A stretch of 61,858 nt of DNA, counting the filler, from Hausera hauseri (lineage: Eukaryota), in the NCBI GenBank assembly GCA_046269625.1. It is 11 parts of 11 records of this genome, joined end to end, with 100 filler letters (N's around TTAATTAATTAA, not from the genome) between each part and the next. Parts side by side here need not be neighbours in the genome. Positions count along the whole stretch, not along the records: positions 9,310 to 15,060 come from JBJURY010195192.1; 10 more parts are not named here. One strand, 5' to 3'. The notes beneath the pieces were generated by a model that was given only the letters and a program-made list of their open reading frames with translations, did not search any database and was not told the DNA's origin. Each line of letters begins with the position of its first letter. The stretch's first letter is position 1. Of the stretch, positions 1,712 through 30,868 are shown in pieces. A program made the translations under genes and the position numbers.

Positions 1712-2353
1712 TCATTCTATCTCTTCTTGGTTTAGATTGATACCGTTCCTCATCATTATTTTATATAGGTGATAAGATATAGTTGTTACAATTTTACTAC
1801 GAGATATACCGGTTCCCATCATTCTTGATAAAACAACTCTTTCTTGAATTTCATTTATCATTTCATCCGTAGGGATATCTGCAAATTGCTCATTAATCTT
1901 TGCAAATTCATTCCTTATAGTTTGCATTAATGGGTCTGGTATTTGTAGGTTAGTGTTGAACTCGACGAATGCATTATGTATTCTTATTAACACGGTTTGT
2001 AGTAATGTTGCCAATGGTACATTATCTACATCATATTCATCTTCTGTTGTTAGCAACATTCGGACAACTTCATCGTCTCTGGCTTTTCTACCTTTTAATT
2101 GATAAAGTTTTGTCGTTCCTTTAGGTCTTCCACGTGTTCTTTTATTTGTTTGTATTTGTTCTGATATAGGAATGTTCATTGCAGCTTCTACTTGTTGAGT
2201 CTGATGTTGATATTCAATCTCGTGTGTATCCCTTCGCCTAACATCAGTGATAATTTCATCAGTCATTTCTTGTTCAGTCTGTTTATAAGTAATACACACA
2301 GGATTGTATCGGTTTTCCCAGATACCCTCTTCATATAAAGTTTCATAATCCAT
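1712..2353 (-). CDS. Unknown 213-aa ORF with AT-hook-like motif, downstream of gag inside a putative LTR element
   Basis: Open frame containing RTRGRPKG. Same strand and codon style as the upstream gag; flanking frames (1143-1700, 2354-3100) look like decayed coding sequence. Confidence 0.45.
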   Translation of the reverse strand: MDYETLYEEGIWENRYNPVCITYKQTEQEMTDEIITDVRRRDTHEIEYQHQTQQVEAAMNIPISEQIQTNKRTRGRPKGTTKLYQLKGRKARDDEVVRMLLTTEDEYDVDNVPLATLLQTVLIRIHNAFVEFNTNLQIPDPLMQTIRNEFAKINEQFADIPTDEMINEIQERVVLSRMMGTGISRSKIVTTISYHLYKIMMRNGINLNQEEIE

Positions 2354-3129
2354 CAGCGTTCATCCATAGAAACGCAAGTCTAATTCTCCTTGAGGCTGTT
2401 TTATTTCATTAATTCTATGCTTCAAAACGACTATCGTATACAACGACGTCATTCTTAAAACATGAAAGTCCTGACTGTATTGTTGATAAGTGACCATTAC
2501 TTATGGATTTTCTCCAACTATCCTTACTCTATCTGCATACCGCTAAATTATATACCGTACGACATTCTGATATGGACTTGTGCCAGCAGCATACATTAGC
2601 AACAAGTCTAATAAATTAGCAAATTGGTGGTGGCTAATTGTTGGTGACAATAACATTGAGAGGTCCTGTCTAAACTGAATTCCATCAATTAATTCCTGGT
2701 TCGCATAGTTGGATATCGTCCGAACTATTTCTATATCATCCTGATCTAAGTTTATGGGTGAGCTGTCAAACTCTGGTGACCTTTCTTTTGCTTTCTTTCT
2801 TCTTATTCTTTTTATCTTTTCCTTCGATTTAGATTCGCTTTCCTCAGTTTCGCTTCCAGAAGGTAAATTTAATTCAGGAGTGTTTAATTCTTCTTATATG
2901 AGAAGTTTATCTTTTCTCTTAATTTTCTTCTTTTCGGTTTCTGATTCAGACTCAGGGAAATTTTTGGGCCTACAACTGGGGCTATGGTGGTATTTTCACT
3001 TAGCATTTTGTGCCTTTCTTCACCAGTCTGCTGTTCTTTTAATTCGGGGTACAGCCGTTTTAATTCAACTGTGTTATTCTCATCATTTAATGTATTAGTC
3101 TTGCTTTCTTTTAGCTTAGATCTAATCTT

Positions 3130-4170
3130 TTACTGAAGTTTTTCTATCGTATCTTCAGGTTCTGTATCTGTGGTCTCACGTTCTTTATTTGTGTCGGATA
3201 TATTTCCAATCATTTCGACCTGCTTTTTCTTTTGGTTCGATTGTCCTTGCTTAGGGCAGGAACGACCCATATGTCCATATTTCTGACCTGAAAAACATAA
3301 TGGCTGTCCATCTTGATTTACCGTAGGCTTTCTCATTGCAGATTTCTGAAGTTGGTTTTGTCAAGAGACCTTTTTTTGTTGTTGTTCCGGTTGACCAGAA
3401 TACTTCTGAGAAGGCTTTTGCTGAAAATTTTTCTGTTGGAATTTTTGCGATTTTTTGTGATCATTTTTGGGATGTTTCTTAATATTCTCAAGTGTTTCGT
3501 AATTTACTTCAATCTTTCTGGCCTTATTGATGGCTTCTTTATATATATCCGGATCTGCAACAATAATATATTTCTAGATTTTCTTATTGACACCATAATA
3601 GAATTGAGCGAAAAGGGCATCTTCCCTTATATCATCATTTGCATAAACTCTGTGAGCCAGTTTCTGAAAGGCACATGCAAACTCTTGCACGATTTTGCCT
3701 TTCCTTTGACGCTGCCTGTTAAACTTTTCTATTCGACCTTTTCCTGATGGGTTTACTAAGAGATTTTTTTTCGAGGGCGTCCTTAAGGCTGGTCTAAACA
3801 GCCTTATCTTTATTGTCCTTTTATTTGTGCATAAGCACTTAGTGCTATATCTTTAAATTGTAAAGGGAGTCTCTTTATTCTCAGTTCATCTGTCCAGTTA
3901 AAGCTTTCCGAATACATTTCGTATTGCATAATAAACTCTGCATAATCTTGATCAGGTTTGGCCTCGTATTTATCCATCGGTAACCTCATGGTTCCTGATA
4001 GATTACTGCCAATACTTGCACCTAATCCTGAATTTGATATTTCTGGTTTCTCGTTAAGATTTATCTGTGGATTTTCGTCTGATTCGGAACTACTCCTTGC
4101 CGAATCAGTACTCGAAGCCGTATTAGTAGCGTGTATACGTTTACATCGTAAAGAATACGACGCCAGTGTG
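3130..4170 (-). pseudogene. Gypsy-type gag (capsid domain plus degenerate zinc knuckle), disrupted
   Basis: Minus-strand translation MRLPMDKYEAKPDQDYAEFIMQYEMYSESFNWTDELRIKRLPLQFKDIALSAY resembles a Gypsy capsid. Knuckle CFSGQKYGHMGRSC (CX2CX4HX4C with one C lost) lies in ORF 3130-3336. Confidence 0.75.
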
Positions 4171-4172
4171 CC

Positions 4173-4196
4173 TCCTCATTCGGGACACCAGTGACA
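4173..4196 (-). promoter_or_regulatory. LTR 3' end (...TGTCA) followed by primer-binding-site-like TGGTGTCCCGAATGAGG
   Basis: Minus strand reads TGTCA-C-TGGTGTCC immediately upstream of gag, the canonical LTR/PBS geometry. The cognate tRNA and the LTR 5' boundary were not determined. Confidence 0.65.
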
Positions 4197-7100
4197 AGTT
4201 TATAGGTTAAAAAAGTTTGGATTTTCTCAATCCTAAACTTATACTCTAGGACAATAGTAGGAAGAGTCTAGGGAGTTTTACTCCCATGACTTGACTTCTT
4301 ATTTATTCTTTTGAGCAGCCTGTTGGGTCTGCTCAATAGATTATTTATTGGGTGTGCGCTTCGAACACTAGGAGGTACACCGGTGTCGTGTTCTTTTATT
4401 TATTGGATTTTAGACAACCGTCTTATGAACGGAATACCGATAAACGCCCTTTTATTTAGTTTAGTTAACCTTATATCAAATAAGTAGTTTGAAAATAAAA
4501 CAAATATATTAATCAAATTGAATAACCAAGCAATGATTTAAAAACTTACATAAATTGTAATGATGCATAATACGATGATGATTCAAAGAAAAATGAAATA
4601 TTGTGTTTGTCTTTTAAAATACATGCTTATATAGCATATTTCATTGCACCAAAATTATAACATAATTCCTTATCACTTTTCTTATAACCAATAGAATTGT
4701 CAGCCAATAAAAAGAAATGAAAATAAAATCAACAATAATCAAGCGTTTTATTGTTACATCCAATAGTAAATCAAATATGATTTTACTGCATTAATCAATA
4801 GTCAATAATTCACTAGTTGTCGACATATAGGTATTACATTCGGATTGCATAGACAATGAGGATACACAATCATTATTAAAATATTTATTCAATTATTGAG
4901 TATTTTGTTTAATATTGTTCTTCATCATTTTGCATGTTTTTTGAAATCATTCCACAATTGATTTTATTTATTTTTAATATCTCACCTTTTTAACATCAAA
5001 CTTTCATTAAATTACAAAAAAGCAATATTTATGTTACAACTCGAAGTTGAACTAATTTAACGCGAATTATGACAATGTATTTGATAATATATCAGTTTTT
5101 CGCTTTCATTGTTGTCAATCGGATTAATCAATTAAACTCAGTAAGTCAGTATTGTTCACGTTTACTTCGTGGCTCTAACTTTAGCAGATACCACAGGTTC
5201 AGTTTCTTATTTAGAATGCCCCTGGATATCGGACATATCATGACTGTCAGAAGTTATTTAGAAATAGTACCAGATATGCATAGTATTTAAGTTTAACAAT
5301 TTGTAAGCAAGGTTATCAAAATAAAGTAAAATCTTCCAAAGTATGATTCACGATACAAAAATAATTCCAGAAAAATTTTATGATTTGTAACACAGGCAAA
5401 ACCCATTAAACAGTCAACAATGTAGTTATTTTCCGAAGAGAAATATGTATGTGTCCAGGATATTCGTTATTTTCTTAGAGAAATTGTGTGTGTAATAACA
5501 TTTGTTAGTCAGAGATAATAGATTCTAAATGGCCAAAGTCATGAGACTTCTAAAAATAGAGTTTGTTGGCAATTAGACAAAACAGGTCATGATCGAAATG
5601 TACTTATTAAGTAATTAATTTTCTTTCATTATATTGGGCATTTTAAACGGTAACAACATGTGAAGTCGAGACGTCGTACATATCCTTTTTATGTCCAACG
5701 TCGTCTGAACCAACACCAATAAATATAATTGAGGTATGAATTATTTTTAATTAACATCTGCAGCTAAATAATTTTATTTTATTCGTAATTATTTTCTGTA
5801 ATAATATGTAATATGAATGAGTGCAATAAAACTTGTTCGAACGCGTGTAGTTCTATATGACGGGTGTTAGGGTTTGTTAATAAAATAAACCAACAAACTC
5901 GAACTCGAATTGAGGTCGAACCGATCCAGAATATCCCAGTCAAACAGAAAACGGATACACATTAACGTTTATTTGAGTTATCCGAGATCAATGTCATTAA
6001 TAATTATATTTATGATTTGAAACATTACAATCCAGAATAATTGACTATCACTATGTGAATATTTCTGCCTAAGTAATAAATCCTTCTGTATATAAATGTC
6101 TTGTTTTGATTATGTTAAACCCCTTGGTGGGTATCTCCTACATTCCTGCAAATTGTAAATTATTGTTATTCAAAGCGTAAAATTATCAATTAATCAAAGT
6201 AATTATTGAATAATTAATATCCAAAAATTTTTTAATCTCGAAACAAACAAATTGCAAAAACTAGTTGTTATAGCACAACGTACAAATTTACTAGAACCAG
6301 AAATAAAATTAAACAATGTGATAGGCAAATTCAAAAATTTTAAGTCGTCAACAGGCTCAAAATACCCTTCTTATCAAAGTATCAATAGCTAATTAACCGT
6401 GATTTTCGTTAATGAAATAAAAGTGCAAACAAGTCAACAGTAAATTGCTCGTCTCAGTAAATCACACAAATTTCAAATGTTCCTTACGGTTCACATCATT
6501 GCACAAAATTAAGTACCCCGATTTGAAGAAAAACTAGAGGTTACACACGCACCTCGACACGCCGTTCTAAAAAATCAAATTTAGACCAAATGCACATAAA
6601 AATACACTCCATTGCAAAAAGTAAAATCCTTAGCGACATTTTCACATAGCCTGTTCAAGAAAATGCCAATCATGGAAATCTATGAAAAATACAGTCCGTG
6701 GCATTTTTCAATTCCTCACAGTAGCGCAAGAAATCCTCATGAACTTTAAACTGTTAAACAATGCATATGGCGGATTTCGAAATTAGTTTTGTCTAAAAAT
6801 CTCCATTCTTTCAACGCTAGCCCAAGACATTGTTTTTGGACATTTTAGTATAAAAATCAGCTATTAATCAGCAAAATTTTGCCGAATATTGAAAATCCAT
6901 GTCTGACCCGATAATTTGTTATTTAAACATAGAAATTTCATTTTTTATAATTCTAATTTTTCGGCAGTATATAAACTGCCACTAACGCCTAAAGCTACCA
7001 TTAAATTCTCACTATCATGCGAAAATTTTCCTACGACAAATTTTTCGAAGAACATAATCGAATACTTCTGTATCAAGCAGACCTAGTGGCAATTAAATTC

Positions 7101-9309: not shown

Positions 9310-12300
9310 GGTAGGTTAAATGCTTTGCGTTATCGAATGTTGTTCTGTATGTTAAACAAAGACCAAGATATAGCAAAACCCTTTAGAGAAGAACGCAAAG
9401 AGCACGTTAGCAATACGAAGGTGCAGGAAAGAGAGTCGTCGCAGAATATATTCCGTATGGTAAGTAATACAATAAATTATTGGGCAAATAAGGATACAAA
9501 CGATGAAGCCAGTAAGAACGAAGAGGTCCACACTCAAGAAACCTCTTCAAAGTTGCCACCAGTAGAAAAGCAATTAGACGCCCCTGTAAATCAACGATTA
9601 CCAGAGGAACAGCACGAAGAGCAAACACAGTCTGATGATGGCCATTCTAGTCTAATACACATAATGACGGAACATAGAAACAAGAGTACACCTCACGAAT
9701 GTTCTGATCATCTAGAAAAAAGATCACCATACCCAGGTCAAAAGGAGGATTGGGAAGGCATTGATCCTACATATAAACCTCCACCGAAAAAAGGGAAATA
9801 TAGTTGTCCCAAGGAAATATTACAAAAAAAACCACGTTGACACTGAAGAATGGAAAAAGTTACCAGAGTCGCTAAAGGAGGCAATGGAAGAATTAAACGA
9901 GAACGGTTACGAATGGGAACCATATGAAACTAATAAACGTATAGCACCAGAGCTAATAAGGGTAATACGAGAAGATATGAATTTAACACTCAAGGAAACG
10001 ACTTATGAGACAAAGACGATCCTAACCATTATAACGAAGACGCTGTACCCTAAGGGAGTATATAATTACACAACGGCCAATGAGATAATTCCTTATTTTA
10101 GATTAATAAATAGCTTAAGGACAAGTCCAGCAGTCCTACCATCGTTGAGGGAAGAAATGAACCAAGTCTTATGCAGACTAGTACATCAGCCACCACATTT
10201 CCCAGTAAATTCAAAAAGAATAAGTGCAGAAGAAAAAGATATTCCAGACACTATAAAGAACTTACGCATTATAGCTGACAGGAATGAACAATGGTTAGAT
10301 GATATCGAACCGAAAACAGAATATGCTGCCCTGTCTAATCCCGACTACCCTGATACAAAATTGCGTATATATGGGGAAACTCCCAGAGAACGGAGTAGAG
10401 ATATCGTTAACTGCCTGTTGCTCCAAGGTAGCATAGACCAATTACCTTACGAGGATAAGGAAAATTTTATGAAACTGTATATGATTTTATACGAATCATA
10501 TTTTAATCGGTTGAGACAAGAAACAGGAATAGATCTTAGGAAATCAACCTATGATCATCCGTTACTCTTAATATCCAGTCTGTTATATATCTCATATAAG
10601 ATGCCGATAGACGATATACAATTCAGCCCATGGGTAGATTTTCAAACTAGGGTATATTACCAAGGATTTCGTTTATTACAACGAGTTATAAGAGAAATAC
10701 AGTTACAACCTATATGGTTACAACCAGCCAAGATTATGATAGGAACATGGAATGAAATGATGGGAATATCAGGCATAGAACCTATGTGTCCGAAACACGA
10801 GTTATTAATAAAGAACCGATTGGAAACTCATTCTATACTACAGATAATTCGTTGTTTACGATCATTCGATTTTCTAATAGAAAACCATAATTTAATGTAC
10901 GAAGAAAGTATAGTATATGGAGACAGAAATAAATATCAACCTTTATTCATTGGTAGTCGAAGGGAACGGATGATGATTACTCAATTTTTGCAAGAAAAAT
11001 CACAGTTGCATAAAGTAACTGATACAACTGACTCATCTACAGCAACTGATATAATTAACTATATCCAAAGATTATCTCCGAAATTAATAGTGAGTAGAAT
11101 TCCAAAAAAGATATTAAAAGCAGCCAATCAGTGTCTGGACTTGTTTAAATATTATGGCGAAGAGTTGAGTACTAACTCCCAGTCTGAAGCCTACGCGATT
11201 AAATGTTGGATGACTTATACACTCATGACCATAAAAGATAATGTCGTTCAAGAAGATATAAAACTTTTTGAGAAAGATGAAGCACAGGTAGTATGGAACG
11301 ATTATTTGAAACGAGATACGAATACTATATTGACCCCAGAGGACTATATGGATATAGATAGATTCGACACAGTGAATGCCAGTGGATTTTCTGGAAAATT
11401 AAATGCAATACGGTACCATACAATATTCTGTGAACTAAATGATAACGTCGAAATAACAAAACCATTTAAGGAAGAGAGAAAAAGAATAATAAACACTCGC
11501 AGACAAGAAATAGATAATAATAGAGAGACAGCAACGGTTAAGACAAGGGGCCACCGAACACCAAACGCTCTTGATAAACGAATCCTAAATTTATATTTTA
11601 ACAAAAACTTATCCAGAATGGAGGAAGATATAGATGAAAAGAAAAGAAATGGTGAGTTATGGTCAGAAAGCGATGACGATGACTCTATTGGCCAGATAAG
11701 TGTTAGTAGTAACGCTAACACAGATAAATTCGAACCTACCAAAGAAAGCATCTCAAATGCTACTAGAGAAAAAGAAGCACGGATAGTATGGAATGATTAT
11801 TTAAAACGGGATTTGAACACTATATTGACCTCAGAGGATTATATGGATATAAATAGATTTGACACGGTAAATGCAAGTGGATTTTCAGGAAAACTAAATG
11901 CAATACGGTATCATACGATATTCTGTGAGCTAAATGATAACAATGAAATAGCGAAACCATTTAAAGAAGAGAGACAAAGAATAATAAACATTCGTGGACA
12001 AAAAATGAATAATAATGAAAAAACGACAATAATTAAGACAAGGGGCCTTCGAACATCGAATGCTTTTGATGAGCGAATTCTGAATCTGTATTTTAACAAA
12101 AAGTTATCCAAAATTGAGGAAGATACAGATGAACCTTACAAGAAAGGAAATGATGAATTATGGTCAGAAAGCAATGATGATGACCCTATTAGCCAGATAA
12201 GTGTTAGTAGTAACGCTAACACAGATAAATTCGAACCTACCAGAGAAAACACCTCAAATGCTAGTGGAGAAAAAGAAGTACATGAACCAGTGTTGTCCAA

Positions 12301-14991
12301 CAGTCGCCAGTTCAGTATAATTGGTACCGGATTGAGATACCCAATGTTAATATTACTCATTATTCCATTTATATTATTTGGAACAGCTGAAGCCGCTCCA
12401 ATAACATCGAAACATACACCGGAGAATTCGTTGACTTGGATGATATTATTGATTTTTATTAATCTTATGTTCTATACGAAACCAACTAAACAATCAACTA
12501 GCGATGAGGATACCACTCCGACTGAAGGACATACTGTAATAGAAGAGGTCCCAACTATTAGACCAAAATTAATAAAACGCCGAACTACAGCACAATTAAA
12601 GGAGTTAGCGATTAATAAACCCTTGCCACTTGAGCAAGAAAACACTGATCATATAGATAATTGCCGCATTAAACAATCAGAAGAGAACAAATCTCAAAAC
12701 ACTACTATAAATACATATTTACCGTTATCTCGACAAATAGAGAAATATGAACGCAAGAGAATACAAGAAGATAAAGGAGAACAACAAGTCTTCGTTAGAG
12801 AATTTGAACAGGATGAAGGATGGTTAGATTTGAATACTTCAGTTCAGTTAAACCTGGCTATTTATGCTAAAGATCCGAAACTTAATCAACACTATTTACA
12901 ATTAATAACTAAAAATGAAGATATAATCAACTATATAAAAGAGGAAATTTATTCTCCTTTTGACGTACTCTCGGAAGAGACGCAAATAATCATAGCATTA
13001 ATTGCCCAAGGAGTAGAATCAATCACAGATCACCCATATTTAACTGTTAACGAAGTCGTCCCAATATTTCGTCATATAAATAAGCTTCGTAGAGAACGAC
13101 ATAAATTATCAACGGAAGAATACGAATTATATACTGTTGCTAATCGAGTAGCCCACTTACCTTTGAATAATAGGAACCCTGTAATTACACTTGATAATGC
13201 TCCTGATAAACGAATAATGATTAATGATCTTAGACAAGCGCACGTAATGCAATTGGAATGGAAAAAAATATTAGACGGCTCAATCCGAACAGAAATGGTA
13301 TACTGGAAATGTATCAAAATGAGATAACTTCTCGTCAAAGAAACAGCTGGGATATTCACCAAAGTGTTCAATACGCAAATTATGTATGGAGTTCGCCAGA
13401 CCATATAAGAAAGGAACTTATATCATTTCACCTTGACATGTATAAGAAATATCTCGAACAATATCAAAGGGAGTCGAATTACAACCCCAATACCCATCCA
13501 ATGAAAGATAATCTATTACTAATCACTAGCTTTCGACGTTCTCTAGCTAAGGAAGCAATAATTGAAGGCAAATCTTTTAGAGAAAAGTATGAAAACGAAA
13601 GAATAATTTATAATTCTGGCTTAAGAATATTTGATGAAATTATGAATGTATCAGGAATAAAACTTCCATGGTATAATCCCATGTATGAATTGATTAAAGC
13701 CTGGAATTATAGATGCGGAATACGATCAGTTTGTTTAAAGAATCCAATACATAAATTAATAATCATACACGAGTTACAACTATTAACCATACCACAATTA
13801 ATAGAGAAGATACGATCTGTGGACTTAATAAATATAAGGCATAGCTTCGATGAGAGTGAAACACTTGTAATTGGATCCAATGAGGATTTCCAACCTTTAT
13901 TCATAGGAAGTGAAGCCGAAAGAAAATTTCTAACGAGATTTCTACGAGGAGATAGAGCACCGTTACCAGTAAAGCATGGCAAGAGACAAATCGAGGATGA
14001 ATTACCTGGCATAAATGATTACATAAATGATCATGAAATGTGTAGCATAATTAACTATAACTTAACCTTATACGAATGGTTTGGATTGGAACTAGTAAAG
14101 CAATGCAAAGGAGAAGTATATGTACCATGCATTACAGCTTACTCAATAATGGAATTGAAGGATAAGTTAGATGATGAAGCACTACAAATAATAGAAGGAA
14201 AGGAGATCAATATCTTATGGAATAAATACTTAGAACGAGATTTAAACCAAGAAATATCAAAACAAGATTATCAAGATATATATTCATTCTGCAACGTGAA
14301 TGCCGAAGGGTTAACTGGTCGAATAAATGCTATTCGATACCGCTTAATATTTTGCTCGTTAAATATACCTAATGAGAAAGCAAAGCTCTTTAAGTTGGAA
14401 AGAGAAAGGCTAGTATCTCAAAGGAAAACAGTCGTTCGAAACCGAATTAACGGTTTAGTAAAATTCGCAACCAAATCCCTCACTTTATTAACACCTATGT
14501 TTATACTGTCACGACTAATCAAGAAAACGGACGCAAAAATGATCACCAGTACTACTATACTGACTAGCAAACCAGCGATGTCTTCGATTTCCATATCGGA
14601 ATATACCATTTCTGCAGTAATATTGACACTTCTAATTAGCCTTATAATAGGAGCGTTAGTGTTTTTCAATAAGAGGATTAATCGATATAAGCAATTTAAT
14701 TCTACTGGACGAGTTATACTACCAACGATTAGTGGATACATAATTGTAACTAGCTTATTACCCACGGTTAAAGCTAGAGCCTGTAATAAGGAGATATATG
14801 CTTATAGTCGAGCTATGAAAGTAATGTCATTAATGCTACTAATAACGTTCATTTTAGCGTGGACTAGTTACATTGCTATACTGATCAGGAGATCGTATAA
14901 AATACGAAAAGAAATGAAAAGAAAGGAACAATTAATGTTGGATATAGAAGCAACAAAGGAGGAACCACCTCCAAAATACGACGATATCTGA
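9310..14991 (+). CDS. Large (~1900 aa, 5'-truncated) repeat-containing membrane polyprotein, split into three overlapping ORFs (9310-9840, 9761-13327, 13258-14991); probably a retroelement accessory region
   Basis: Intronless open frames overlapping at A-homopolymers (~9824 and ~13262). Motif G(R/K)(L/I)NA(L/I)RY..(L/I)FC.LN occurs four times and QPLFIGS twice. Hydrophobic pairs at ~12343-12475 and ~14480-14885. No recognisable enzyme domain. Confidence 0.7.
11279..12277 (+). repeat. In-frame tandem duplication, period ~495 nt (165 aa)
   Basis: EAQVVWNDYLKRD...NANTDKFEPTKE repeated as EARIVWNDYLKRD...NANTDKFEPTRE, with copies starting at 11279 and 11774. Confidence 0.95.
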
Positions 14992-15162
14992 AACAAACTG
15001 CCACGTGTTTACAAACGACTGGCAGTCCCTATAGCTTTATCAGCACTCAATGTAACTACANNNNNNNNNNNNNNNNNNNNNNNNNNNNNNNNNNNNNNNN
15101 NNNNTTAATTAATTAANNNNNNNNNNNNNNNNNNNNNNNNNNNNNNNNNNNNNNNNNNNNCA

Positions 15163-16173: not shown

Positions 16174-16528
16174 ATGGATTGCAAATATAATCTTAACAGA
16201 CGTAAATGCCTTTGAACCGAGGCGTGTTACAGCAAAGAGTGCAGGTTACGGTGTGTTTTCCAATGTCAATACGACAATTCCGGTCAGCACAATAAAATGC
16301 ATAACGACTGGGATTCAATTGGCGATTACACCCGGTTACTACGGCCAACTTTTATCGAAATGCGGATTGGCAAAACTCGGACTGATGGTTGTGGGCGGTG
16401 TCATTTTTTGAGATTTCCGCGGTGAAATTAAGTTGTTGCTAGAAAACCAATCTGGAGAGCCGTATGCTTTTTTGAAGGTCAGTGCAATCGCACAAATCGT
16501 TTTCTTCCATATAATTTGTAATATGTAA
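16174..16528 (+). pseudogene. dUTPase (trimeric type), disrupted
   Basis: AFEPRRVTAKSAGYGVFS (motif I), GYYGQLLSKCGLA (II), GGVIF*DFRGEIK (III) and AIAQIV (IV). Motif V absent and an internal stop is present. Confidence 0.88.
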
Positions 16529-17224
16529 TATGGCTGATATGTTTATACCTGCATAAAAGAAATAAGTTAGTGTATATTAATTTATTATATAATTTTATTT
16601 AATGTTTTCAATTTAAAGTTAACATTTACTTTAATTTGTTTAAATTTAGAAATGTTCACAATATCCCATGTACTGCATCTCTCGCATACATGAGGTAGAT
16701 CAGTGCCATCAAGCGATGGCGAAATATTCCAAAATCGGAACGGACACGTATGTGTGTCCGACGTGTGTTTTTCCAACGAGCTGTCCGCACCCCGATTTTT
16801 ATGAGGTGCACAAGCACCATCTCGGACCGTTTGCACGGTAATTTTTTAAGAATTACATTCTGTATGCCTTGATTAATCTATTATTCAGTTACTTTTTAAT
16901 CTTTTCAAATATACGTTGTGCTATTAAAAACCTTTTGAACTCCAGCACTTCAAATAGCTGCATTCGAGTGAAATGTAGTATGCTTAATCTGCAACATGTG
17001 ATAGTTTAAAAAAAATTGTTTCATTATTCCGAATGATTTCTATCCAATTTGGTGCTCAATGTTAAAGTAAGCTCTCCATCGTGAGTGGGAAATAAATTAC
17101 AAGCTGTTTATCAAGATCAGAGTCCTTCAAGAAGTTTTGTTTACAAAAGCTTCGTGGACTTGAAAACGTGGAAAAGAGATTATTTAACACATGTATTGTG
17201 ATACAGTAATATATGATTGTTATT

Positions 17225-18236
17225 TTTCAATGTAAGAACCATGTCAGTCAATGCATTTTTGCCGTCTACTGTAAAGTTCATCAAAAGCCTTTGCAAAATT
17301 ACACGGTGATAAAGTCTGTAGATAATCTTGAACACATAGTTTGACTTCATCCCCTTGCAGAATTTTCTTCAAATACTTAAATAAATGGAAATCTGATGCA
17401 GCTAGATCAAAACGGTAAGGCGAGCGATCTAGCTGCACCATTTCCAATGTTTGAATCGCTTCCTGTGTTGTTTATGAGGAATGAATCTAAGCATTATCGG
17501 GGAGAATCCAATAAGTCAAAGAATGAAGCTTCCGTTTTTTCTTCTTGGCCTGTGTTAGCAACTTGATATAATATATGGAATCCATTTTCGAGCCACGATC
17601 AACAAAATCAGCAAAAACAATTCCGTGATAATCCAAAAAATTGAAAGCATGAAACTCTCTGTGACTAGCGCCTTAACGCAATTTTTGAGTGGGCTTTTCA
17701 GTCGGAAACTTCCATTCAGTACTTTCTCGTTTAGATACAAGTATGTAAAGGCTAAGAGCTGTCTCATCTTGAGTAAGAATATTTTTAAGGAATAAATAAC
17801 CATGATGCTTTAAAAGATCGAGAAATAATTGAGAACAATGTGCACGACGATTCATCATTTCACCAGTAAAAAATTTAGGCACGAACCTTGATGCCAATTT
17901 TGGAATACCCATTGACTTTCGGATATTTTGGCATGGCCCATAGCTTAAGTGTCCTCTGTCTGCTAATTCTCGAATGGAAATGCGCCTTTGGTAGGGAACA
18001 ATTTCGGCAATTTCGTGTTCATTTGCTTCAGAAATTTCTGTTGGTCTGCCACCAGATTTTTCATCCAGCACTGATGTTCGTCCACATCGAAACTCTTTCA
18101 CCTATTTGTAAACAAAACTTCTTGATGAACTCTCATCTTGATAAACAGCTTTCAATTCTTCTACAGTTTCTTTCTTACACATATTTTTCTTCATAAGTTA
18201 CATAATGATACTTCTAAATTCAACTTCTGACGTCAT
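17225..18236 (-). mobile_element. mariner (DD34D) transposase pseudogene
   Basis: N-terminal HTH (EFRCGRTSVLDEKSGGRP), RFVPK, TQDET, LPDNA and SPYRFDLAASDFHLF (YSPDLAPSDF-like). TIRs not identified. Confidence 0.92.
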
Positions 18237-20617
18237 TATCTGAAAATAAAATTAAATAATAAAACATCCGGAAAATGAGAGCTTAGCTTTAAATTGCGCG
18301 CCAAATAGGACAGAAATCATTTGGAAACAAAACTTTTTTCAACTATCGCATGTTGCAGATTACGTACACTATATTTCACTCGAATGTATTTATTTAAAGT
18401 GTTCGAGTCCACGAGGTTTTTCATCGCACAACGTATTTCATAATATTTATGAAAAAGATGTAGCTGTGCTTTTTGTAGTCTGTCTGTATTGTCGAAAACA
18501 TCATCATTTGTAAAAATATCTTGCTCTACTGATAGTTGGGTGTCTGAATAGTACAAATAGTTGTGCGTAAAGGACTGAAAAAGGCGCGCATATATTGTTT
18601 TGTTCATGCCGAAATATCTGCCCGACTGATGTTTAAATATTTCTCTGTCGAAAATCTGACAAAGGGATGACAATTGCAATTACTAACTTCAAAAATTGCT
18701 TAGGATGAAAATTTGAAGAATGAAGAAACAATAAAAATTTCATGGATTCTATGTAATATGAATTTTATTTAATTTTGGGTGTTTATAATTATAATACGAT
18801 ATTCACACACGCTACTTTATAATATTTTACATTTGGAATTGGATCGAAGAAACACAGCTGTTCTGCAAAGAAAATGCATAAAGTGTCAAGACTGCGTTCA
18901 GTCGGTAGAAAATGCATTTATCACAAAGTATGGTACATAGTATTCTTGAAAACGACATTTTTGCGTAATGTTATTCAAAATCGAAATAAATCTGGTACTT
19001 ACTAAATGTTTGCATTTCAATTACTCTATACAGACAGCACTTAAAATAGTACTTTTCATCCTCAGCACTCTTTGACTATAGATACACTATCTTGATAACA
19101 TTATCTATCTTCATGAATATTTTCACAGCTTGAATTTGGTGACTAAAATGATACTTAGTAGTAGAATTGCGCAATGTTTGGCGTACATGTGAAATCAATG
19201 TCGGAAAATTGATTTCGCACAATTTCAACTTTGTCTGACCATGGGGACATGAGGAAAAATTGATTGGAAAATGTCACACTCTAAAAATTTCCCATTGTTC
19301 AAGTCTGCTGGTTGTGGAAATTAGTTGAGCACGTAGCCCATCAGTAGTTGAGCATTTTATATTATAACCGCCTCACGATCAGGCCAATGGATTCGGATGA
19401 AAAATGCCACCGAACGAACGAACTAAAAGTCGAAATTATCGTCGTTGTAAATGCGTTCCTTTTGTAGAAAAATCGTGAATTTTATTTTGTACGACGACGA
19501 CAACGACGAACACACAAATTACCACGAGCTCATAATTGAGTACTACTACTACTCGGAAGGTGGTGGTGGTAGTGACAGTCTGCCTACAAACTAATAAGTA
19601 CCATCACCACCACCAAATGTGAAGCTAGCATTAATGAAAATATAATATTATTTCTCATGATTTGTTCGCTCTTTAGTCGAAAATTCATTCCCGAAATATA
19701 GGACATTTAAAGTCGAGACTGTTGTTTTTTGGAAGCACTGTTTTCAAAATCAGCAACGTGTGTCAATAAATTATGACCACTACACATACTAGCATATAAA
19801 ATACCATGGCACTTAGTTTATCGTCATTTCGAAAATTTTCGACAACCGAAAATGGATCATCCAGTAAATGTTCGTTTTTTTCTTTTAATAATTTTTTTTG
19901 TATCAAAATTTTATTATTAATTTTAATATTTTATTAATTTTTCTTTTTATTATTAATTTTTATAAACGATTTAGCTTCAGGCACCTACATAATCGGACTC
20001 ANNNNNNNNNNNNNNNNNNNNNNNNNNNNNNNNNNNNNNNNNNNNTTAATTAATTAANNNNNNNNNNNNNNNNNNNNNNNNNNNNNNNNNNNNNNNNNNN
20101 NGATTAAAACATCATGAGTTAAATAAATTTTTGTATAATCATAAATTACTTCATTGCATTTTATTCCAAACTTCTTGATCATATTGATAATCATTGTCTT
20201 CTGAACGTTAATAATTTATTAAACTAAATCATTGTATTCAATAGATTTGGAGTTATTAACAATTTATTTAATAAAACATTTTTCGACACCCAGAAGAACC
20301 TATTATTAAAAGCCTGAATTTACCTAGAAAAATTTAGTGTGAATATTCTATTTTGTTTAAATTTCGAATGTGTTATTTTTATACATATAATGTTATAATG
20401 TTAGCGCAACACTTACACCGAATCCAAATATATTTATCGCCAAATTTTACATATTTCGCAAATTTTACAATCAGACTTATTTACAGACATTTTTAACTGT
20501 ATTAAATTTATCATCTAACAATTTTATGATTTATCAGTCATTAGTGGTTGTTTGTTAATGATCGAGAAACCGAAGGTTGTTTTTTGATGAAACTTTATTA
20601 AAAATGAGGAGGATGTT

Positions 20618-21800
20618 TTATGGATTTTTGACAAATAATGATCCAAAATAGGTGGAAATGTAAAAATTGACGAAATTTTGTGAAAAATGTAAAAAACGTG
20701 GCGGTAATTTGTGAAAAATAGAAGAAAAGCGGTCAAAATGATCAAAAATGTCAAAAATATGTGAAGATGGAAATCTTACATGGCCAAAACGTCGTAATTT
20801 ATCGTAATTTATGTAATTGTGTATTGATTGGTACTCATAAGGGAACTCTAAGGGCGATTTTTTCAAATACTCCGATTGTTTTTGCATTGGTGTATTTATA
20901 TCATCCGAGGAGGCTTGATTTGACGTATTGCTTATTCCGTCATTAACAGTATATGTTCCATCTTCTTCCTCATTGTCAGGTGTACTTTTTAAAGGATTTG
21001 GGACTTTTATTATTTTCCCATGCTTAGTAAAACGTTCATCAGATTTGTCACCGTCGTTGCCAAAGAATTTACTCATTATTAGTAGTAAAAATATCCATAA
21101 CAATATTGAGGTCCATGAAGAACTAGGGCGATAAGAGGTAGTTTCCACTGCTTCTGCTACACTAATTATGGAAAGAAAACATACTCCCATAAGGAATAAC
21201 GTTCCCAATGAAAATGTGGAATAACCCTTGATACCTGATGATTCCCGTTTTTTATCCTCTTTCTGAAGGCCTTGGATGTGCATAGCCCTTGTTTCGTTAG
21301 CAATTTCATCCATATATTTAATACTATTTCCTGCGCATTGTAATCGGTCTATCATCATCCACTGTTCCTGAGGGAGATTATTATCTAAAGGTTGTCCCAT
21401 TCTTCTATTCCAGACTTGTTTAACTTCCTCTACTCCATTAATGAGTTCTCGCCCTCCTATATTTATATTGTGATGTTTATAAATTTTTAATGCTCGGCTG
21501 CCAGCTACATAATCATGGTGTTGTGATTTTCCTGGACTAGCTAAATCAGGAATAGTATAATATACCTCTTCGCAGCTTAACTTTATAAGAAGTTTATGCA
21601 GAGTGGCTAATGTATTAAAATCCAATTTTAGATCTTCGCAAATTAATTTTATTATGGGTCTATACTGTTTGTCCCTTATTCCGCACTTTTCGTGGTATTT
21701 ACTAAGGAAGTTTCTTAATTCCGTTATATTGTTTATAGGTCCTTTGACTAGTTGTTGTGCATGATTTATGCATTCTGGTGTAGCTAACTGTAAATTCCCC
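20618..21800 (-). CDS. Accessory membrane module of the Gypsy 3' extension (soluble domain + internal signal peptide + TM)
   Basis: ORF 20618-21625 extends upstream in frame (…HEKCGIRDK…). Contains LFLMGVCFLSIISVAEA|VETTSYRPSSSWTSILLWIFLLLIM. The final ~50 codons are low-complexity and may not be real. Confidence 0.55.
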
Positions 21801-21812
21801 AGCCGGTGTCGG

Positions 21813-22502
21813 TTAGCGGCCTCTGGTTAATGGGAGTGGTGGTAGTTTCCCTGCTTTTTGTTGAGGCAATTCGAAATAATTCTGCTCAATTGGTTTAACT
21901 TCTTTGCGTTGGACTTGCTTAGTAAGGTCTATTTTCCTTAACTTAGTATCATTATGTGTTAACGATTTTTGGCTCTCTTCCGGTTGATATTTTTTAATTT
22001 CCTCTCTTAGTCGTTTAATATTTTCTTCTGCTTCTTCCAACGTCTTGCTTAGGACAGTATAACTTACGGGTGGCTGCATCTCGCTTGTGGTTTGAATTTC
22101 CATTAAATCAGGATATATTGAGGTTGTTGATACAGGTCTTGATAAGACTTGAAACAAATTTCGTGGTGGTTTCTGTGGAATGCTTGCTATACTACTTATC
22201 GAACAAGTATCCATGTCGGTTATTGAGGGTAAGGGTACTTGTTTTCTTGTTTGATCATTCAAGGAGGAATTATCTGTTTCCTCATCATCAACTACCATAC
22301 TGCTATTAAACATATAATATGCTGATATCAGCAATAACATGACCGTACTGCTCCACGCATTTGTAGCAGTAGTCGCGTGCATTGGTTGGGCGTCCGCACA
22401 TCCAAATATTATAAGCAATATTAACGTCAACAGTGTTATTGTAGACAACTTAAAGAGATTTCCGAAAATTGTAGGTGGGGTATTAATTGTAGGTATTTCC
22501 AT
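21813..22502 (-). CDS. Accessory membrane module in frame with the integrase/protease region
   Basis: LLTLILLIIFGCADA|QPMHATTATNAWSSTVMLLLISAYYMF followed by a Ser/Pro-rich tail containing YPDL and a coiled-coil-like segment. Confidence 0.6.
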   Translation of the reverse strand: MEIPTINTPPTIFGNLFKLSTITLLTLILLIIFGCADAQPMHATTATNAWSSTVMLLLISAYYMFNSSMVVDDEETDNSSLNDQTRKQVPLPSITDMDTCSISSIASIPQKPPRNLFQVLSRPVSTTSIYPDLMEIQTTSEMQPPVSYTVLSKTLEEAEENIKRLREEIKKYQPEESQKSLTHNDTKLRKIDLTKQVQRKEVKPIEQNYFELPQQKAGKLPPLPLTRGR

Positions 22503-22689: not shown

Positions 22690-23498
22690 ACTTTGAGTTC
22701 TGCTCCCGTCAGTTTGTATAGCACATCTAAACCAATAATAAGATCAGAATACGATTCTTGTGGATTGGCATAACAGGTAACATCAACATAACCTATAGTT
22801 AGATCTAATTTTCCTCATGCTTCGGGTATATAATGTGTAATTCGTCTATATATTCGTAATTTTATACGACTCAGCGGGGTAGTGGTATCAAGTTCCGCGT
22901 TAACGTACTTACCGTACACCTTAACCAATATTGGTATCAACAAAGGATAATCATTATAATTCTGACGATAATGCATATTATATAATAACTCTAACCTTTT
23001 TATCTCTTCTTCCAGCTCGTTCACATTTTTTCGATATTTCTCCAAATCTTTCGTTTTCTCCAACGAATTTGTAGCTACGTCTATTACTATATCGTAATCT
23101 ATTAGCGTATCTCTGCCTATGATACAAGGAATGTTGGAATTTTCTAGTATGTGGTATAAAATCTTTGATCGTTTGTTTTTTAATTTGGTCAAGGCTGTAA
23201 CTACGCCTATCACCTTTAGCTGATTGCCGTTTATTAGTTTGTGGTTTATCTCACTACTTTCATTTAATTTTAGTTTTAAAATTTCTATTGTAGTCTTATT
23301 TAAGTAATTTTTTGCTGCTCCTGTATCTATTATTGCTTCAATTTTAACTTTGTTAATAGTTATAGTTGTAGTTACCATATTATTTGATCCATCTTCTATG
23401 AATGCTATCGTTGTATTTTTATCCTCCGATTGCATTCTGTTCCTTAACGGGTATCTACAAGATGGTGGTTGTTCCGTATTTTCATCCTCCAACTGCAT
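22690..23498 (-). CDS. Two tandem retropepsin-like aspartic protease domains downstream of integrase
   Basis: First domain AIIDTGAAKNYL...CIIGRDTL. Second domain AELDTTTPLSRI...DLIIGLDVL, read through the TGA at 22815. Confidence 0.8.
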
Positions 23499-23582: not shown

Positions 23583-24623
23583 TCAAGAGGTTTTGTTTGG
23601 ATTGGACAAATTCTTCAATTCTACACTTGATTCAGTTATTTGTAATATCTTGTATGGTCCTTTGTATGGTAATTTCAATTTAAAGCTTTCGCCGGGTTTA
23701 TAAATCTCATCTAGTATGTTAACCATGTCTCCGATTCGGTACACACGAGGTTTTGTTTTCTTGTCGTATTGATCTTTGTAGTTTTCCTGGTGGTATTTAA
23801 TTTTTATCTCTGCTCTGATCCATGCTTCTTGTAATCTTTCCTGTAGAATTGTTGCATAATCCGGTTTCTCCATCAGTTGAGACTGTGGCGATCTATATTC
23901 AATGTCGATTGGCATAATATCTCGTCTGCCATACAATAAAAAGAAGGGTGATTCTCCAGGTGTTGTATGAGGACTTTGACAATAAGTGTATACACAAGGT
24001 TTTATATATAGATCCCAATCAGCTGGATGGTCGTAGGCATAATTGGATATCATAATTGAAAATTGTTTATTAAAGGCTTCTACTGCACCGTTGGCTTGTG
24101 GGTGGTATGTTGATGTAAATTTATGATTAATTCCTAGTATTGCCAATACTTTTTCCATAAGTTCGCTGCAAAAATTACTTCCTCTATCAGATATCATTGT
24201 CATGGGTACTCCATATTCAAATATTACGTCGTCGACCAATCTTCTGGCCATAACATCCGTGGTTTGGTTCACCATTGGCATCGCTATTGGAAATTTTGAG
24301 TGATAGTCAATAGCTGTAAGTACACATGTATTTCCTCTAGCGGTAGTTGGTAATGGTCCCACTACATCAACGCCTATACAAACGAATGGTGATGCTAAAA
24401 CTGGTACCGGTTTTAATGGTGTTTTTCTTGCTTGAAAATTTCCTCTTCGTTTTGAATAAACTTGACAATTTGTACACCAATCTTTCACATCATCTGCTAT
24501 CCTTGGCCAATAATATTTTTGCTTAAGTCTACCCAATGTGGCTTTATAACCTCGATATCTGCCGAGCTGTCCATCATGATAGTGTAGTAAAAGTTTTGCG
24601 CGCATGTGTTTTGGCACAACCAT
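23583..24623 (-). CDS. Gypsy integrase (zinc-binding region, DDE core, GPY/F motif)
   Basis: YHDGQLG..YYWP..WCTNC; GVDVVGPLP; ISDRGSNF; YHPQANGAVE; PYKGPYKI. Confidence 0.96.
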   Translation of the reverse strand: MVVPKHMRAKLLLHYHDGQLGRYRGYKATLGRLKQKYYWPRIADDVKDWCTNCQVYSKRRGNFQARKTPLKPVPVLASPFVCIGVDVVGPLPTTARGNTCVLTAIDYHSKFPIAMPMVNQTTDVMARRLVDDVIFEYGVPMTMISDRGSNFCSELMEKVLAILGINHKFTSTYHPQANGAVEAFNKQFSIMISNYAYDHPADWDLYIKPCVYTYCQSPHTTPGESPFFLLYGRRDIMPIDIEYRSPQSQLMEKPDYATILQERLQEAWIRAEIKIKYHQENYKDQYDKKTKPRVYRIGDMVNILDEIYKPGESFKLKLPYKGPYKILQITESSVELKNLSNPNKTS

Positions 24624-25104
24624 GAGTAAGTGTTCACTTTCCTGATAGTATATATTTCCCTATCCATTGTTTATTTATTTTTTCTCCCTTCTTTGTTTAG
24701 ACTATTAAGGATTTTACTCATTTCCTTATCCTTTGCTTGTTCTTTAGTTATGGCTTCGTGTGTAATTGGTATTGTCAGGAATGTGTGCATCTCTTCGATA
24801 ACTTCTGCATTATCTACTTCATCTATCATGGTCTGAATTAAGTCAATCATTTTATTATACTCGTATAAGATGTCTTCCACTAACGGATCTTTGTAGTCAC
24901 TTTGTTTTGTATTTTGTTGATTATTTTGTTGAGTGTTTGAATAATCATACTTATGAGTTGGCCTGTATCTTTTGTGCATTTTTTTCGTGTTGCTTTGAGT
25001 ACCTCTTGGTGAACGCTCTGCGCATAATATTCTTTTAGTTCTTGCATGTCATCATAATCCGGGTTGATGCAATCGTCATAATTTTAATAGAGGTCACTTT
25101 CTTG

Positions 25105-25525
25105 AAGTCTTGATAGAAAGTCTGCATTAGCGTTTGCTTTTCCTTGTCGGTACTGTATTGAGATTTCTAAGTCTTGGATTTCTGCAGCCCATTTCATTAA
25201 TTTTCGGCTGGTGTCTCATTGTATCATTAGCCACTGTAAAGGTTTCTGGTCAGTATATAGGATTATTTCTCGCCCCGTTAAATAATATCTAAAATATCTT
25301 AGAGCATATACTATCGCATAACATTCTCGCTCGATTTTTGACAATTTACACTGTGTTTCACTTAGCGTTATACTAAAAAATGCTATTATTCCTTCACGCG
25401 GTCTGTCGGGGACACATTGTCCTAAAACTGAACCTATAGCGTAACCGCTGGCATCTGTCATTATAATATATGGATATTTAGGGTCAGAAAACTGTAGTAT
25501 TGGTGGAGAAGTTAGGACTTGTTTT
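25105..25525 (-). pseudogene. Gypsy RNase H domain (contig ends before RT)
   Basis: LTSPPILQF...TDASGYAIGSVLGQ...ERECYAIVYAL...YTDQKPL...GKANANADFLSRL, with one stop. Confidence 0.95.
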
Positions 25526-26869: not shown

Positions 26870-29093
26870 TAGGGTGTTCAAAAAGTCCGGATACAGCAAA
26901 TAACTTCGAAAACCAAGAGTCTAAGAAAAATTCTGTCTAGATATGGGTATAGGTTTTTTTATTACCTATTCGATGGTCATCTTGAATTTGACTTTGACCT
27001 TCAAGGTCATTGCAAGGTCAAGTCCATTTTTTCAAATGAAACCTTTGAAGGTCAAGGTCAAAGTCAAATACCTGATCATTAAAGTAACGCAATCAAAAAC
27101 GGTAAAATAGAAATTCGACACTGGTATTTCATATAAATTGGTATTTATAATATCAATTTACAGTGACTCGGTTAAAGTAAGTGTTCAAAATTTTCACCAT
27201 TTACATGTTGACAATGTGCTAATCGTTGATAAATGTCACCTATGGAATTTTGGATGGTTAATGGATCAAGCAGTTCTACTTCATCTGTGATATTTTGTTT
27301 CAGTTCTTCAATATTTGTAGGCTTTGATCTATATACTCCATCCTTCAAATATCCCCATAAGATGTAATCAAGCAAAATGAGATCAGGAGATCTCGCTGGT
27401 CATTCGATCCTGCCTCTTCGGCCTATCCATTTTTAATGGAACATATTATTTAAGTATGCTCGAACATTGCGTCCATAATGAGGAGCAGAACCATTCTGCT
27501 GAAACCAAGTATTTCTAAAATCATTGCCTACAATACCCCCGATATCGTCTCTGAACATTGTCTCATACTTTTCAGCAGTGAGATTACTCAGTGAAAAATG
27601 ATCCAACAATTCTATCATTAAGGGTGCCTGCCAAAACGTTAATTATCTGAGGGTATTGAATTAATCTGAGTCAATCATCCAGTTTGGATTTTTATCACTC
27701 CAATACCTCATGTTGTGCCTATTGACATGACCGTCCAATTGTAATGTAGCTTCGTCACAAAAAACAATACATCTTGGAAAACTATCATCAGCAATTATTA
27801 GATCCATCATCTTGTCACAGAACTCAACTCGTCTATCTGGATCATCCTCGTTCAGTTTATGTACGAGTGTTACTTTGTACCTATCGTACTTGAGTTTCTT
27901 TTTCAAAATATTATGAATCGAACCAACGATGAGATCGTGTTTTGATGTAATTTTCTTACTCATGTATGACAATCGTCCACGACGGACTGTGCAACATTTA
28001 ACTGGTTCTCTTCATTCGTAGCGATTGCGACACGGCCTTATCTAGGGCGATCTTTTACACTACCTGCATCATTAAAGCAGTCGAGTGTTTTCTTAACGGT
28101 CATATTAGAAATTGTTTAATTTCTTTCTGGAAACTCCATATTAAATAAATCCTGTGCATCTTGAAAAGATCTCATTTTGTCACCGTAACCTCCCATCATG
28201 AGAATGGTTATTCGCTTACGCTCAGTAAGCACTATTTTTTAAGATATTAATATTCAACTAGTTACTTGAATATAAGTCAGATTTGGAAAAATTACTAAAA
28301 TAAAATAACTATTTGAAAATTGTTGAAGATAGAGGAAAAAATCAAAAACAAAACTAAGTGAAAATAAAGTGAAAGGAAAATTTTCTCCGATAAAAGATTT
28401 TCTGACAATTATGAAATTTGTACCTCTAAAAAATGTTTAAATTTGGCAAATATTGAAATGTTTACTCATGTATTCACAAGAATTCAAAGGTATAACGCAT
28501 ACGCAATATGATATCAAATTAACTAATGAGATCAGTTGCACATTTACACTAAAAAAACGATTTTCTGCTTTAACGGATAATGAGATAAATTGTGCGTGTG
28601 CAAACTTGTTTGAATCTTTGTTAAGCGTTTATTGTTCATTATTGAGTTTAAATAAATGATTGAGTAAATAATTAAGTTTATGAATTTTTTCAAAATTAAG
28701 GCGTTCTGATTTACTAGATTTTAGGATAATTACATTCATATAAATATAAAAAATATGAAATACCAGTGTCAAATTTATATTTTACCGTATTTGATTGAAT
28801 TATTTTAATGATAAGGTATTTGATCTTGACCATGACCTTCAAAGGTCAAATTATTTTGAAGGTCAAGGATATATCTGGACGTACAATTTTCTGCTTTATC
28901 TATTTCCGGTGTTAAAAGTATAGGGTGCCATTTGAAAAAATGGACTTGACCTTGAAATGACCTTGAAGGTCAAGGTCAAATTCAAGGTGACAATCGAATA
29001 TCCAAGGAAAATCCTATACCTATACCCAGGTAGAATTTTTAGACTCTTGGTTTTCGAGATTATTTGCCGTATCTGGACATTTTGAACACCTTG
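26870..29093 (-). mobile_element. Tc1/mariner-superfamily DD41D (rosa/visitor-like) element with long TIRs; transposase pseudogene at ~27172-28236
   Basis: Inverted termini (T)AGGGTGTTCAAAA...TTTTGAACACCTTG-TA. Inverted similarity extends ~270-340 bp with internal TGACCTT/AAGGTCA repeats. Motifs FCDEA, WFQQNG and PARSPDLILLDYILWG, with 41 residues between the 2nd and 3rd catalytic positions. Confidence 0.92.
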
Positions 29094-30868
29094 TATAATG
29101 TCATTTATTTATGAAAGCATTTTTTTTCTGAATTACCTTTAGCATTGGTGCTTTTGTCTACTTATACAAGTTTGTAACTTTGTCTCGATCGTACAGATTG
29201 ATATTTCCAATTAGGTCATATATTTTGTCTTCTAGATCAGATTTATTTCCAAACTGTGGTCCGTTATATTTTTTTCTGATAGAATTCTAGGTGGCCAGTC
29301 CAACACATCAATATGATTTTCAAGCATCAGCAAACACAAACAATAAAATAAATAAATAAAAAACATGACTTGATTTATGGAACAGAATAACTGTACTATT
29401 CAGGTAAAAAGACATAAAAGTTAGTTTTTTAAGGGAGTCTGATCAAATCAAAGCTAGAATAAATTTCAAGCAGAGAAAAAAAAAGGACGTAATTTATATC
29501 AGTTACAAACACAGCTTTTTAAAAACAATTTTATTTATCCCTGAAAAGAGATCAGTACACTTAATCTGTGCAGTTTATGGTCTTAAGTCAATAATAAATT
29601 AAATGATTAACTAAATTTCAATGGGCTAGATTTTTAAAATTTCTGTCTCATGTCTAACAATTCTTAGAAAGCCAAAACCACTTCAGTACTTAAAAAAAAA
29701 CCCTCACACTTTAATAGTTAGTTATCCCTACTGAATATAAATTGTTAAAAATGGTAATTATATCCTTTAAAATATGGGTAAATATACTGTACCNNNNNNN
29801 NNNNNNNNNNNNNNNNNNNNNNNNNNNNNNNNNNNNNTTAATTAATTAANNNNNNNNNNNNNNNNNNNNNNNNNNNNNNNNNNNNNNNNNNNNCTATCGG
29901 GAAATAGTATTTATCCCCTAGTATTTATCTAATCTTGTTTTTCTATAGGTAAATTCAAATTAAGAATTAAATTTCGTCAGATACGCAAGAAAATTGCGTG
30001 CGGTTAAAACTATTTGAGATGTTCATAATAATTTAAAAAATATGTCGTGCCCAATCAGAAATCATGAGTTCCTTAAAATTATTCTATAGTAACATCTTCA
30101 TACTCAATTTATGACCAGGTATTTAGCATAAAAATGAAACAAAATTCTCAATAATTCTTAAATTGGCTTTCGTATTGATGGAATTATTCCTCATAAAATA
30201 CAGTTAATATAAGTGCTTTCACGTCAAAACAAGCATATAATACAATGAACATATATCATCTTACAAAGATATAAATTATATCTATCTTTATGCATACTGA
30301 AAGTAAAGGCCTTAATCATCTTGCAAGATTTTATGTAGTTATACCAAACAAAAGACCCAATTTTAATACACATCACAATTAGTAAATATATGTTAAAAAA
30401 TTCTCCAATAATATGTAATGTAAAATATTGAATTATTGTAAAATAAACTTCTATGCTTAATGTAAATAAAACACAATAAATAAAATATCAAGGCATTTAA
30501 AATTTACTATTATCTTGATCACACTACAACGCATACCGTTGCTGTGTGGTCAAACTAAAATACCAGTCTACCGTTTATTTTCCAATGCACTATCACAAAT
30601 GAAACGATTTTGGACATAAGTAACGGTATGTACAAAACAAAATATTTTTATCTAAATTTGTTTTCCTTATAGAGTGATTATACATAAGTGCCGCTAATTT
30701 TTTTCTCGGTGTTATTGAAGTAAATGTATATAGTAAACTATTTTACACACATATTTGAATATAAGTTTTTAAAAATACCTGTTTTTCAAAGATTTCAAAT
30801 TTTCATGTTATGCATTTTACTTACAAATTAATTGAAGAAATTATAGTTAAAATATTTTTATTTTAGAA

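Follow-up and report, generated by a model that had tools for sequence, protein, structure and literature searches.

The contig at positions 9310-15060 (JBJURY010195192.1) of a 61,858-nucleotide window from Hausera hauseri (GCA_046269625.1) is coding on one strand over nearly its whole length, and its product consists of tandem units of a predicted helical protein with a membrane hairpin between them. The DNA belongs to a large, high-copy family whose coding sequence is under purifying selection. We think it probable, taken as one proposal, that the contig comes from within the 3' accessory region of a giant, high-copy Ty3/gypsy-type long terminal repeat (LTR) retrotransposon, of the lineage represented by a pol-bearing contig at 20102-25525 of the window, and that host signal peptidase cleaves the accessory polyprotein to give cytosolic proteins anchored in the membrane. 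The window consists of short contigs joined by N-linkers, and the contig under study, bounded by such linkers, is cut at both ends.

Results

Between 9310 and 14991 on the plus strand, three overlapping frames give about 1,890 codons in total with two breaks (Table 1), in agreement with a preliminary description of a polyprotein of about 1,900 amino acids (aa) with nearly intact frames. The tandem repeats and recent 165-aa duplication reported there are also present: two full units share 28% identity over 416 aa (E 1e-44), and a tail motif, noted earlier at 9310, occurs four times (9310, ~11390, ~11890, and ~14320). A search with unit 1 by HMMER over 1.84 billion representatives returned one match, P0001 (24%), a 622-aa protein from a 2-kb contig in which hairpin, linker, and unit follow in the order seen here; P0001 is 49% identical to part of unit 2. 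The unit itself is longer than the roughly 450 aa first proposed. Because homology extends about 80 aa upstream of the T.NE motif that had marked its start (B79-159 against B1069-1149, E 7e-8; P0001 alignment from residue 36), the unit is, judged by these alignments, about 550 aa long.

Both frame breaks, described earlier as A-run frameshifts, coincide with the only two runs of at least 7 A in the contig. Contigs from other sequencing runs vary by one base at both places, and P0001 reads through the second break in a single frame; this assigns the breaks to the present copy or to its assembly, as either lesions or homopolymer errors. Programmed frameshifting at the A-runs was rejected on the same grounds. 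Copies also differ in repeat number, since joints found in three runs (11307>11815 and 11638>12138) skip one copy of the 165-codon duplication, which is thus absent from other copies of the family. Between the two duplicates, the ratio of nonsynonymous to synonymous substitution rates is 0.28 over 165 codons and 0.12 in the domain part.

Contigs aligning to the stretch were present in all four public runs (X1 11,220, X2 2,141, X3 295, and X4 158), most of them less than 95% alike, with 30 of 30 bins covered in each run and transitions dominating the differences. These thousands of divergent contigs, a tally in which contig depths are not copy numbers, give the multi-copy picture expected of a Ty3/gypsy element, and because they are so diverse, the DNA is a large, high-copy family. 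The open reading frames (ORFs) hold 39 of the 40 variants listed (1,529 others lie outside this count), and these comprise 22 synonymous and 17 missense changes and no stops, with 20 at third positions. Among the variants listed, 10.5 +/- 2.7 synonymous changes were expected (observed count against simulation, 1 of 2000); the coding sequence is under purifying selection. The coding strand is rich in A (A.40, C.17, G.18, T.26), and both the pol contig (.40/.18/.18/.24) and a gag-like contig at 1712-4175 (.41/.17/.19/.24) come close to it, unlike a Gemin5 gene, a Polinton-like gene, and another gypsy fragment in the window (A.28-.32).

The hairpins follow one plan, in which a hydrophobic helix closes with a small-x-small triplet (AEA, TEA, ADA, and AEA) and is followed by about 12 polar residues, a second helix, and an acidic or low-complexity linker. 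Signal peptidase follows an A-x-A rule, and on hydropathy and that rule the hairpin reads like an internal signal peptide plus a stop-transfer anchor. The earlier view that transmembrane (TM) hairpins separate some units holds for the single hairpin between units 1 and 2; the other hydrophobic segments are C-terminal, and none lies between the tail at 9310 and unit 1. After the last TM segment, 6 of 15 residues are K or R, and the C terminus carries PPPKY, which we take to be a PPxY-type motif. A 554-aa span contains 7 Cys and 3 sequons, low counts that fit a cytosolic side for the helical arrays.

The link to a retrotransposon comes from the contig at 20102-25525, which encodes on its minus strand, in order, RNase H, integrase, an aspartic protease, a hairpin, a linker, a helical domain, and another hairpin. 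With a hairpin profile made from the finding and P0001 only, this contig ranked first of 1132 sequences (E 2.8e-6; next 0.51), which bears out the shared hairpin design proposed in the preliminary description. Of the two motifs said to be held in common, VWN is in register, aligning with WNYRCG of the repeat, and CGIR falls out of register when the sub-repeats are aligned, so that we rejected it as a probable chance match. A protease after the integrase is itself unusual: in 53 of the 54 relatives that carry both, the protease precedes the integrase, and the exception is a weak 24% match; the pol contig is cut, so a protease further upstream is possible. A second, degenerate protease-like stretch (AELDTTT; 22818-23070, minus strand) follows the protease and aligns to the start of the protease profile at background score. 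Among the integrase relatives found, the nearest to the pol contig (46%) is P0002, a metagenome gypsy integrase that continues in frame into a signal-like segment, a region of about 330 aa with no assigned family, and a C-terminal TM helix. Reverse transcriptase (RT) was seen on neither the finding's contig nor the pol contig, and no RT-RNase H-integrase pol domain was found on the former, a cut contig.

Each unit is probably made of three helical sub-repeats of about 165 aa (s1, s2, and s3). Separate profiles of the three match the same segment of the single helical domain on the pol contig (0, 2, and 1 of 500 shuffles, respectively), and the alignment places sub-repeats and single domain in one register. 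Folded with seven sub-repeat rows, the single domain gave a seven-helix model (predicted local distance difference test [pLDDT] 68, predicted template modeling score [pTM] 0.57), whose better score is not creditable to the alignment as such. It had no Foldseek match at E 0.001 in the PDB or viral libraries, an absence that does not amount to a new fold; the best VIA Z was 6.4 over 66 residues, with no Z of at least 8, and neither a Bcl-2-like nor a retroviral capsid fold was among the matches listed in PDB structure searches with this model. The 560-aa whole-unit model scored pLDDT 41 and pTM 0.25, at which a fold search is meaningless.

The domain had been called unrecognised, and our searches bear this out: no Pfam family and no solved or viral fold was matched. 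Pfam gave nothing under E 0.03 for any part of the contig and no transposon domain inside it, PDB sequence searches gave 0 and 12 matches (best E 0.076), and no match came from phage tblastn or from the viral contigs and prokaryote genomes scanned. Longer proteins queried by word index with part of unit 2 gave 0 of 2,113 candidates, and an alignment search among shorter proteins covered only 30-43 residues and was uninformative. The Atlas held no usable match for unit 1 or unit 2, from which neither absence nor novelty follows. No RNA data set containing the stretch was listed, and no tRNA genes were found. One metagenome locus (L001) was rejected as a chance match, as it lies on the strand opposite another gene.

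Table 1. Coordinates of features on the repeat contig and on the pol-bearing contig
Feature	Position	Strand	Details
Frame 1 (ORF A)	9262/9310-9840	+	176 aa
Frame 2	9716-13327	+	1203 aa
Frame 3	13234-14991	+	585 aa
ORF A, content	9310..9840	+	Final ~40 aa of an earlier unit (truncated by contig end), then acidic/low-complexity linker; tail against other tails E 1e-8 to 1e-7
A8 run, first frame break	9824-9831	+	One-base length difference in contigs of 2 of 4 runs
A7 run, second frame break	13262-13268	+	One-base length difference in contigs of 4 of 4 runs
Unit 1 (~550 aa)	9836..11497	+	Probable sub-repeats s1 9836-10303, s2 10379-10873, s3 10934-11497; predicted almost all helical
Unit 2	12806..14421	+	Probable sub-repeats s1 12806-13261, s2 13327-13827, s3 13888-14421; split by second frame break
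Tandem duplication, 165 codons	11270..12281	+	Second half of s3 plus linker; copies 11270-11780 and 11766-12281, 85% DNA identity
Inter-unit hairpin	12338..12480	+	Hydrophobic helix ending A-E-A (signal-peptidase-like site before 12395), 12-aa peptide, second helix
C-terminal hydrophobic block	14464..14886	+	Two signal-like/anchor pairs: first, weak helix ending T-D-A with strong TM 14608-14667; second, helix ending V-K-A with strong TM 14827-14886, then basic patch
Presumed PPxY-type motif PPPKY, YDDI, stop codon	14965..14991	+	Read from sequence
RNase H, decayed gypsy-type	25219-25524	-	Pfam RT_RNaseH E 2e-25
Integrase, decayed gypsy-type	23586-24659	-	Integrase_H2C2, rve
Retroviral-type aspartic protease	23067..23369	-	Downstream of integrase, same frame
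Hairpin homologous to the finding's	22311..22457	-	E 2.8e-6
Single ~180-aa helical domain	21251-21796	-	Weakly similar to s1, s2, s3
Second hairpin	21059-21214	-	After single domain; whole block 21059..21796

Elsewhere in the window, a decayed gag-like region with a degenerate zinc knuckle (1712-4300, minus strand) is followed by acidic/basic ORFs that are not protease, with weak blastp similarity to gag-pol (E 4e-4); it includes RGRPKG, presumably AT-hook-like, and the other labels of the region are likewise our assumption. A TGG-starting stretch at ~4192-4175 resembles a primer-binding site. This region has the composition of the finding and may represent the 5' end of an element of that type. 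Among the repeat families shown, none is a long non-coding direct repeat within 1-29800. A further gypsy fragment, compact and of different composition, lies at 52730-55032 on the minus strand and comprises a DUF7041-like gag, protease, and RT.

The remaining contents are a mixture of mobile-element remains and host genes. A decayed Polinton/adintovirus-like DNA polymerase B with an endonuclease VII domain (41872-47109) is flanked by inverted repeats of about 350 bp (41872-42227 and 46309-46634, 83%), two decayed Tc1/mariner-like transposons with terminal inverted repeats lie at 16911-18436 and 26873-29090, and a piggyBac-like DDE fragment lies at 136-519. An intronless 1195-aa Gemin5-like gene (WD40 propellers plus GEMI5 TPR), with no exact match in the protein collection, occupies 30851-34438 on the plus strand, a decayed reading frame that we take to be dUTPase-like occupies 16175-16500 on the plus strand, and the window also carries a DPAGT1-like glycosyltransferase. 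The Gemin5-like, Polinton-like, and DPAGT1-like genes, together with the DDE transposons and gypsy fragments, suggest an animal-like eukaryote. The contig at 57954-61858, with about 60% GC against 30-40% elsewhere and tandem repeats of about 200 bp, is a possible contaminant.

Discussion

The accessory region of a giant gypsy element would account for these observations in the following way. The long coding strand, which is under purifying selection, grew as a helical domain was duplicated again and again, and hairpins lie between its blocks; it would be translated as an extension of pol or as an ORF after it. Each hairpin would act as an internal signal peptide followed by a stop-transfer helix, and host signal peptidase would cut at A-x-A, leaving products whose N terminus is tiny and lumenal and whose large array of helical domains lies in the cytosol, held by a single membrane anchor. 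The final one would be a membrane peptide of about 70 aa that bears a basic patch and the PPxY motif. Most speculatively, the arrays could serve as scaffolds for protein binding, tethering the assembly of particles to membranes or engaging host defence or trafficking factors, and the PPxY motif could recruit NEDD4/ESCRT. A membrane-tethered protein-binding scaffold for particle assembly or host-factor antagonism is thus our best guess at function, one that repeated duplication under selection would fit without proving.

Several results weigh against this account. No contig carries the unit together with pol, gag, or an LTR, none of the pieces listed spans the stretch, and the unit is present in 0 of 106 long integrase relatives. 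Hydrophobic segments match easily, and the profile that picked out the pol contig gives background scores for that contig's second hairpin (E 2.9) and for the C-terminal block of the finding (E 3.2). The three sub-repeats do not match one another in pairwise comparisons (18 of 18 tests, at least 35 of 500 shuffles). When ranked with 2,264 decoys, real and reversed, the single domain came 1st for s1 (E 0.09), 56th for s2, and 5th for s3. Its score with a joint profile whose alignment left it out was E 2.3; the value of E 1e-11 stems from an alignment guided by the single domain. The inter-unit hairpin lacks a positive-inside bias, and cleavage and topology are both deduced from hydropathy and the A-x-A rule. 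The proposal that the contig is an LTR retrotransposon accessory region, made in the preliminary description, has indirect support in that the contig is a high-copy, intronless, selected coding repeat with a homologous hairpin and a composition like that of two other retroelement fragments with A-rich coding strands; the domain-level similarity is weak and fades against harder decoys.

Other origins would explain part of the same evidence. High copy number and selection would suit any mobile cargo, and the window also carries Polinton-like and DDE transposon remains, so that the stretch might have traveled in a Polinton/Maverick, a Helitron, or another large DNA transposon, or in a non-autonomous derivative sharing gypsy modules by recombination. 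We regard this as unlikely, as the composition is like that of the gypsy fragments and not the Polinton-like ORFs, and the sole homologous module in the window follows an integrase and a protease. An expanded, fast-evolving, intronless host gene family, such as membrane-anchored effectors or immune receptors of a parasite or invertebrate, would likewise be under purifying selection, could lack any transposon domain on its contig, and would have a local precedent in the long intronless Gemin5-like gene. Thousands of divergent contigs, an A-rich strand unlike that host gene, a hairpin common to a retroelement, and a polyprotein layout with internal signal-like sites make such a family quite unlikely.

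Two further readings are less credible still. Internal signal/stop-transfer hairpins and a PPxY motif are typical of viral polyproteins, and a signal-peptidase-processed, flavi- or nido-like RNA virus could have left a polyprotein gene that was endogenised and later amplified. No replicase, helicase, or glycoprotein match was seen, and selection across many copies is unexpected of a dead viral insert, so we consider this origin very improbable. Least credible of all is that the contig is an expanded env gene of the element itself. The position would be right if the pol link holds, and signal-like peptides, TM anchors, and a PPxY tail would be in keeping; the domains, however, are predicted to be almost all helical with few cysteines and sequons, paired helices would place the large domains on the cytosolic side, and no fusion-protein match was found.

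Should the giant gypsy account be right, the contig would add a new domain family and a new retroelement expression strategy, combining a self-amplifying domain with host signal-peptidase processing, and would offer a testable case for why elements grow large and how env-less elements use membranes. Should the linkage to pol fail, it would still represent a selected, high-copy protein family of no known relation. A bolder form of the proposal, which we hold to be a long shot, is an undescribed lineage of giant LTR retrotransposons with a protease after the integrase, many kilobases of cargo, signal-peptidase-cut accordion arrays of a new helical domain, and a small FAST-like membrane peptide, bearing PPxY, by means of which particles lacking env bud or move from cell to cell. 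We found no description of such a layout in the literature, a weak sign of novelty given that most subscription papers and Repbase were outside coverage.

Among known systems, viral polyproteins such as the flavivirus/hepacivirus structural region and alphavirus 6K alternate internal signal and stop-transfer helices with A-x-A sites. Their large domains are lumenal glycoproteins, whereas here about 12 aa would be lumenal and the large domains would face the cytosol. P0002 resembles the pol contig in that its integrase is prolonged, in frame, by a signal-peptide-like segment and then a membrane protein, but its extension is unrelated to the unit and lacks a protease.

Few animals are known to have giant LTR retrotransposons whose multi-kilobase cargo is under selection, and that cargo usually consists of captured host genes. 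The nearest known kind is Burro, a giant planarian gypsy family for which thousands of copies, a polyprotein of 4,873-5,140 aa, and accessory domains of largely unknown role added to gag/pol are described (PMC6431247). In many copies, a very long polyprotein, and accessory domains without a clear role, the two are alike. Burro's cargo as described there comprises BIR, ankyrin, MATH, BCL2-like, and env-like domains, with the env-like region before protease-RT (PMC6431247); no such domain was found in our fragment by Pfam or fold search, and its cargo, which has no Pfam or fold match, is repeated upon itself and on the related contig follows integrase and protease, is set apart by that description. 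None of the other accessory domains in the part of PMC6338049 available is like the unit, and the linker in the accessible portion of 10.1101/2023.02.08.527609 is a different one. Small membrane proteins of the sORF2/FAST-like type belong, according to PMC11952523, to MDG1-group retrotransposons. In contrast to those described there, our predicted last product has no N-terminal glycine/N-myristoylation start, its ectodomain would be 15-18 aa rather than about 30, it would be released from a polyprotein rather than translated from a separate small ORF, and no sequence kinship was seen. If the proposed cut occurs, it would nevertheless share with them a length under 200 aa (about 70 aa here), a single TM helix with a basic patch beside the membrane, and an ectodomain that is short.

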